Below are positions 11,143 to 11,336 of a stretch of DNA of 11,336 bases, piece after piece (positions within the stretch are counted from its first letter, which is position 1; each line of letters opens with the position of its first letter). The notes under the pieces were generated by a model. The model saw nothing but the letters and a program-made list of their open reading frames with translations, had not been told where the DNA came from and did no database searches. Origin of the DNA: a virus (lineage: Duplodnaviria; Heunggongvirae; Uroviricota; Caudoviricetes); the IMG/VR virus record IMGVR_UViG_2681813135_000008; one strand, 5' to 3'. The translations under genes were made by a program, and so were the position numbers.

Positions 11143-11143
11143 A

Positions 11144-11336
11144 GCCACTCGATTTAGCGTGGCCGCCTGGCGTTATGCTTCGCAGGATTACAGGACATTC
11201 AGCGACCATCTTTACGAAAATGATAAACACTATCATCAGAGTGATTATAATGATTTTTATGATATTGGCAGAAAAAATAGCCTTTCTGCCAATATTATGC
11301 AACCTTTATCCAATAATCTGGGAAATGTATCATTAA
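11144..11336 (+). CDS. Internal fragment of an unidentified protein-coding gene (partial at both ends), AT-rich
   Basis: The frame starting at 11144 is open for all 64 codons to the window end despite AT-rich composition: ATRFSVAAWRYASQDYRTFSDHLYENDKHYHQSDYNDFYDIGRKNSLSANIMQPLSNNLGNVSL. The minus-strand frame is also open but encodes an implausible Ile-rich mirror sequence. No recognisable family. Confidence 0.4.

Follow-up and report, generated by a model that had tools for sequence, protein, structure and literature searches.

The unassigned end of an 11,336-nt viral record is almost certainly a piece of the Escherichia coli O-island 1 'Yeh-like' usher gene, probably from a 5'-truncated remnant

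What gene does the short, AT-rich piece at the very end of a viral record come from, and does it belong to the phage DNA that it follows there? The record in question is IMGVR_UViG_2681813135_000008 of IMG/VR, assigned to the Caudoviricetes (11,336 nt, hereafter the window), in which runs of 10 N at 361-370 and 11133-11142 delimit the last piece to exactly 11143-11336, 194 nt. A first-pass annotation made from the letters alone had described this piece as an AT-rich coding fragment that matched nothing recognisable, possibly horizontally acquired cargo, and had left it as the only part of the window without an assignment. Our analyses point, with little room for doubt, to the start of a separate Escherichia coli contig that lies inside a fimbrial usher gene, that of the O-island 1 (OI-1) or 'Yeh-like' chaperone-usher operon located between rpsT-espX1 and nhaR, and probably within a deletion-type remnant of that gene. 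Below we set out the evidence for the identity of the gene, for its chromosomal locus and for its likely state in the source strain, and weigh each against the alternatives.

The nucleotide search that the first-pass annotation had proposed was made with the 194 nt as a megablast query against 5426 complete E. coli genomes, and it returned a full-length match (194/194 nt, 100% identity) to the plus strand of a chromosomal coding sequence (CDS) annotated as fimbria/pilus outer membrane usher. The fragment is a common one, being matched in 3639 of the 5426 genomes, almost always in one place per genome and on the chromosome. At the protein level, the 64-aa peptide read in frame +2 (codons 11144-11335, with no stop across all 64 codons; translation ATRFSVAAWRYASQDYRTFSDHLYENDKHYHQSDYNDFYDIGRKNSLSANIMQPLSNNLGNVSL) passes the gathering score of the Pfam Usher model PF00577 with 32.7 bits against 27.1 (E = 5.1e-8, profile positions 260-316 of 549), which places the fragment by sequence in the Outer membrane usher family, while the 443-aa remnant that carries the identical allele scores 281.5 bits for Usher and 38 bits for PapC_C. 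Structurally, the 64 codons correspond in alignments to residues 431-494 of an 816-aa usher, a part of the beta-barrel region that lies C-terminal to the plug in the alignment to FimD structures and that includes the conserved barrel segment 'RYS..GY..F'. The full-length usher itself aligns with FimD structures over residues 42-805 (E = 2.5e-113), and end to end with FimD and PapC, and its plug is placed at residues 248-328 by a match to the isolated Caf1A plug structure. These alignments establish the identity, strand and frame of the gene, so that a piece thought to be beyond assignment turns out to be an exact copy of part of the OI-1/'Yeh-like' usher, a known and common E. coli gene with nothing novel about it.

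Compositionally, the first-pass description was accurate. GC content (guanine plus cytosine) is 37.6% in 11143-11336, compared with 53.5% in the phage region (371-11132) and 46.4% in 1-360; one frame, +2, is indeed open over 64 codons; and the peptide that it encodes has many Tyr, Asp, Asn and Ser residues. The remark that such an opening is unlikely by chance holds in part: when the 194 nt were shuffled 20,000 times, a particular frame remained open in 1.2% of cases, a figure that rises to 5.9% when at least one of all six frames is counted, and frame +3 of the piece is likewise open, for 63 codons, to a stop at its very end. An open frame is by itself weak evidence of coding, and its being only modestly unusual is what could be said for reading the region as non-coding, as the source of a minus-strand product or as an RNA. 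Such a reading is nonetheless scarcely credible given the nucleotide and protein homology to an annotated plus-strand CDS, the stops in all three frames of the minus strand (longest open stretches 31, 54 and 25 codons) and an Rfam search of the fragment in which nothing came near its gathering score (best 24.9 bits versus 52.7, E = 0.11). The coding origin and the frame are thus settled by homology and not by the length of the open reading frame (ORF), and a non-coding or minus-strand match, the outcome that the first-pass annotation had named as decisive against itself, did not turn up.

Where the gene resides could be determined from complete genomes. The usher CDS that holds the match in strain 120899 (NZ_CP025916.1) is partial and lies between espX1 and nhaR, and at the same site E. 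coli O157:H7 has a complete four-gene operon, between rpsT-espX1 and nhaR-nhaA, in the order fimbrial subunit, periplasmic chaperone, 816-aa usher and a fimbrial-family (adhesin-like) gene. Every complete genome that was opened carries the usher sequence at this one fixed site, rpsT-espX1 to nhaR. The operon partners, that is the chaperone and subunit genes, are adjacent in full-length alleles, whereas deletion-type alleles (described below) keep only the downstream adhesin-like gene. In K-12 the OI-1 operon is absent, and only IS1A lies between nhaR and rpsT. From espX1 to the adhesin gene the island has a GC content of 37% versus about 50% for the flanking core genes, which accounts for the AT-richness of the fragment and fits an old horizontal acquisition.

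As to the kind of fimbrial system, the NCBIfam model NF011763 (YehB-type; cut-off 933) gives the full-length usher 1489.7 bits, with the next family at 521 bits, and the best matches of the major subunit and chaperone of the operon are YehD and StcB/YehC-type models. Wurpel et al. 2013 list Z0022 (EDL933)/ECs0022 (Sakai) in their Table S2 under 'Yeh-like', in the gamma4 clade, and record this usher from phylogroups A, B1, D and E but not from B2 or K-12 (PMC3559732). Two reviews describe O-island 1 (z0020-z0025) as a putative fimbrial island, citing Allison et al. 2012, and add that it also encodes FmrA (z0021), a motility repressor (PMC9387321, PMC10877973). We would therefore class the operon of the fragment as the OI-1 / 'Yeh-like' gamma4 chaperone-usher type, a grouping that rests on the NF011763 score, the identity to YehB and Table S2 of PMC3559732.

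Comparison with known ushers gives the fragment a graded set of relatives. The nearest is the O157:H7 usher Z0022/ECs0022, the same gene in the same reading frame at the same chromosomal site, to whose allele the fragment is 95.9% identical in nucleotides with three differing residues within the 64; the fragment is, by contrast, 100% identical to alleles of many phylogroup A/B1-type genomes, and its haplotype, unlike the O157:H7 allele, belongs with the alleles that have lost 2442 bp and keep no more of the usher than residues 374-816. Next comes YehB (K-12 yehDCBA; Stc in Salmonella), the closest K-12 paralogue, which is 58% identical over the full length, belongs to the same subfamily NF011763 and is encoded in a like four-gene order of subunit, chaperone, usher and adhesin. 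The yeh locus differs, however, in position (2.19 Mb in K-12 versus about 0.02 Mb for the OI-1 operon) and reaches only about 72% nucleotide identity, over part of the fragment. Further away, FimD (the type 1 pilus usher; PDB 3RFZ, 6E14) and PapC belong to the same fold family and would share the mechanism of an intact gene, but these are distant paralogues of the gamma1 and pi clades, and compared with FimD the fragment has a shorter loop.

What, then, is the likely state of this gene in the strain from which the contig came? Alignment of the exact-match locus (L001) with that of O157:H7 (L002) revealed that 2442 bp, L002 3388-5829, are missing from L001. Lost with them are the region upstream of the operon, the genes for the major subunit and the chaperone, and nt 1-1119 of the usher gene, and thereby usher residues 1-373, which comprise the signal peptide, the N-terminal domain, the first barrel strands and the plug. 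A junction-spanning query found the deletion in 2426 of 3638 locus-bearing genomes, and the junction was also found in a Shigella flexneri record and in mis-binned contigs of metagenome-assembled genomes (MAGs). Wherever alleles vary within the 194 nt, the window agrees with the deletion-type alleles L001, L014 and L017. Because its haplotype is that of deletion-type alleles, the source strain probably has only the remnant, and we consider it very likely, on this allelic evidence, that residues 374-816 are all of the usher that it carries. The 64 codons of the window are too few to display a complete usher architecture, and in genomes with the identical haplotype that architecture is missing, with residues 1-373 deleted. 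The fragment is usher-derived, and a functional usher is probably not made in this lineage.

A fragment of an intact, functional OI-1/Yeh-like usher with its full operon, cut by an accident of assembly at the contig break, would look the same over 64 codons, none of which is a stop and none of which is disrupted by a frameshift, and about one third of locus-bearing genomes (3638 minus 2426) do keep the full-length operon. We regard this as improbable, since each full-length allele examined differs from the window at 6-9 of 194 sites and full-length-type matches to it reach only 94-97.4% identity. Conversely, all 35 sampled matches of at least 99% identity share one annotation name, the name that marks a partial usher at the eight loci of that kind that were opened; the 35 were judged by this name and not opened individually.

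An intact usher of the FimD/PapC type sits in the outer membrane. Its signal peptide is followed by an N-terminal domain to which chaperones bring their subunits, its pore is a beta-barrel of 24 strands that holds a plug, and two further domains lie at the C-terminus; the protein links fimbrial subunits into a polymer by donor-strand exchange and extrudes the resulting fibre. Set against this background, the contig of the source strain begins inside the usher gene of the OI-1 / 'Yeh-like' operon, and its 64 codons encode the barrel strands and loops that come just after the plug, residues 431-494. The 2442-bp deletion would have taken the promoter-proximal region, the subunit, the chaperone and usher residues 1-373, most likely leaving the source strain with a non-functional remnant: lacking signal peptide, N-terminal domain, plug and cognate chaperone, it would be unable to work as an usher. 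The first-pass term 'coding fragment' therefore needs a qualification, for although the piece does derive from a plus-strand coding sequence in the frame that had been seen, the lineage with the exact haplotype has a 5'-truncated pseudogene, so that coding here probably means ancestry and not present function.

Several observations weigh against this account. The window itself spans only 64 codons, with nothing upstream of usher nt 1290, so that the truncation would rest on haplotype association; four of five sampled deletion-type remnants keep an open frame of 443 codons (in the fifth the frame is broken by an internal stop, and the gene downstream carries a frameshift); pairwise dN/dS (the ratio of non-synonymous to synonymous change; Nei-Gojobori) among deletion-type alleles is low, at 0.03-0.3, values that taken alone might point to constraint still acting on the remnant; and the start of the contig at exactly 11143 lacks an explanation from repeats, unlike the first two contig ends.

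The dN/dS values, though, have another explanation. Polymorphic sites among the deletion alleles fall in blocks that are common to full-length alleles: when L001 5831-7162 was compared, L014 and L017 matched L001 up to remnant nt 885 and then switched to a full-length-allele haplotype, and L016 matched full-length alleles from remnant nt 79 onward. Such a pattern indicates that the deletion-type remnants are mosaics, with recombination across the locus after the deletion arose, and recombination that imported variation accumulated under selection elsewhere would explain the low dN/dS. Selection on the remnant itself was considered and rejected, as the block-shared differences point to recombination. 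Changes private to one class were tallied by hand from the site table, in numbers too small to test: deletion alleles have about 6 non-synonymous changes (one of them a stop) versus 5 synonymous, and full-length alleles about 3 versus 9, which fits relaxed constraint. We therefore treat the remnant as a decaying pseudogene, with residual function as a low-probability alternative; that it has been kept for expression signals of the adhesin gene or for translation from the GTG at 11159, or alternatively that position 11143 marks a new rearrangement of OI-1 mediated by an insertion sequence (IS), strikes us as very unlikely.

Whether the piece could nevertheless be phage cargo depends on how the window was put together. 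The pieces of the window and the codons discussed here are collected in Table 1.

Table 1. Positions of the pieces and features discussed in the text (window coordinates)
Feature	Position	Strand	Remarks
gadB, first 360 nt, from ATG	1..360	+	100% identical; end of another unlinked contig
Lambdoid prophage minor tail protein L gene	10437..11132	+	Ends with the contig, 3 nt before the stop codon
N spacer	11133..11142		10 N between two unlinked contigs; assembly/concatenation spacer, no sized gap
Internal usher gene fragment	11143..11336	+	194/194 nt match, Pfam Usher match, locus context
GTG, first in-frame start-type codon of the truncated usher frame in deletion-type alleles (putative)	11159..11161	+	ORF listing

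The middle piece (371-11132), which begins 4 nt upstream of the portal ATG and stops 3 nt before the stop codon of L, shares 99.2-99.3% identity with E. coli lambdoid prophages (in locus L004 the match ends at 29762, the L CDS spans 29067-29765 and K follows at 29770). The first piece (1-360) is found at a median of 2 places per genome, and its contig stops inside the gadA/gadB repeat, presumably as a result of these near-identical paralogues. The window thus reads, from the genomic positions of its parts, as a chain of three unlinked contigs (the 5' end of gadB, a prophage segment from portal to L, and the usher piece) with spacer Ns between them, which bears out the earlier description of the last piece as a separate contig piece. 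As the three are unlinked, no inference should be drawn from their order. Both ends of the prophage contig lie at gene-module borders common to other lambdoid prophages, at up to 10 places per genome, as is typical where short-read assemblies break.

In favour of a cargo gene (moron) of the lambdoid prophage, one that had taken the place of K behind L, one can cite the order of the pieces and the low GC. Everything else makes such an insertion a near-impossibility. Phage contig and fragment are connected by a run of N, and to the left of the phage contig lies a piece of gadB, another unlinked locus; in complete genomes with this prophage, at 99.2-99.3% identity, L is followed directly by K (C40 peptidase) and then by I, J, lom and tail fibre genes, in agreement with the earlier view that the fragment is not lambda K; the usher occupies its fixed chromosomal site, espX1 to nhaR, in each genome opened; and no phage match for the fragment was found by blastn among 50,697 phage records, distant mode included. 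The absence of linkage can be read directly in NZ_CP029369.1, where the prophage (99.2% identical) adjoins prfC with L at 3,925,047-3,925,745 on the minus strand, and the usher remnant lies at 3,861,421-3,862,752 on the plus strand, about 62 kb from L and on the opposite strand. The idea of horizontally acquired cargo is thus reasonable in an evolutionary sense, given a low-GC island absent from K-12, but not in the sense of phage cargo. A plasmid origin was rejected as well: 'plasmid' matches of the fragment amount to 11 records of 0.4-4.9 Mb, 10 of them typed non-mobilizable, and records of such sizes look like chromosomal records or fragments.

Why the third contig begins at 11143 is less obvious, since known repeats lie at the first two contig ends but not at this one. 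An intrinsic repeat was rejected as the cause of the break: the 300 nt spanning 11143 are present in a single copy in E. coli genomes (a median of 1 place per genome and a highest count of 2), and the local GC of 38-48% is ordinary for the island. IS1 copies, on the other hand, recur at the rpsT-nhaR island in unrelated strains (L006 4245-4998, L013 3797-4564, L014 669-1366, L017 301-998 and L018 1487-2184), and IS1A abuts or cuts the usher in strain ES1, about 110 nt into the fragment, while espX1 is truncated by IS1 in BL21-type strains; BL21 itself has the deletion-type allele. The rpsT-nhaR locus is a hot spot for IS1-mediated decay. As IS1 copies are common here, the break at 11143 would most plausibly come from an IS insertion in the source strain, with a coverage gap as the other option.

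Two further features of the locus concern what the deletion has left. The ORF listing on L001, where position 6001 corresponds to 11143 of the window, gives a GTG-started ORF at 6017..7162; the corresponding GTG in the fragment is a mechanical observation, and a putative start codon only. Directly downstream of the usher, the adhesin-like gene (L001 7175-8134) encodes 319 aa with only a weak Pfam Fimbrial match, and it is intact in most deletion-type alleles. In O157:H7 a frameshift splits its counterpart (L002 7174-8134) into two ORFs, one of 108 aa and one of 227 aa. From the order of the genes, the shorter should be z0021 (FmrA) as described in the two reviews, where O157 FmrA is reported to repress motility (PMC9387321, PMC10877973).

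The locus has also travelled into public records under other names. An exact-sequence search of the genome collection for the end of L, the 10 N and the start of the usher piece gave no match. A protein-guided scan of the collection then returned five loci; the source scaffold was not among them, and three are E. coli DNA mis-binned in MAGs or in a Tannerella assembly: these E. coli copies (L007, L008 and L010) are filed under an uncultured Alistipes sp., a Bacillota MAG and Tannerella forsythia ATCC 43037, the last as a 381-nt contig. They are evidently contamination or mis-binning in public assemblies.

For the record examined here, the outcome is that the sole unassigned part of the window resolves into a common E. 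coli chromosomal gene piece, with no phage-borne fimbrial cargo in the window. For the family of fimbrial systems, the locus illustrates how cryptic chaperone-usher operons decay, through a 2.4-kb deletion shared by two thirds of its carriers, through repeated IS1 insertions and, in K-12, through full replacement by IS1A, a pattern of decay already known from published work on the diversity of E. coli fimbriae.
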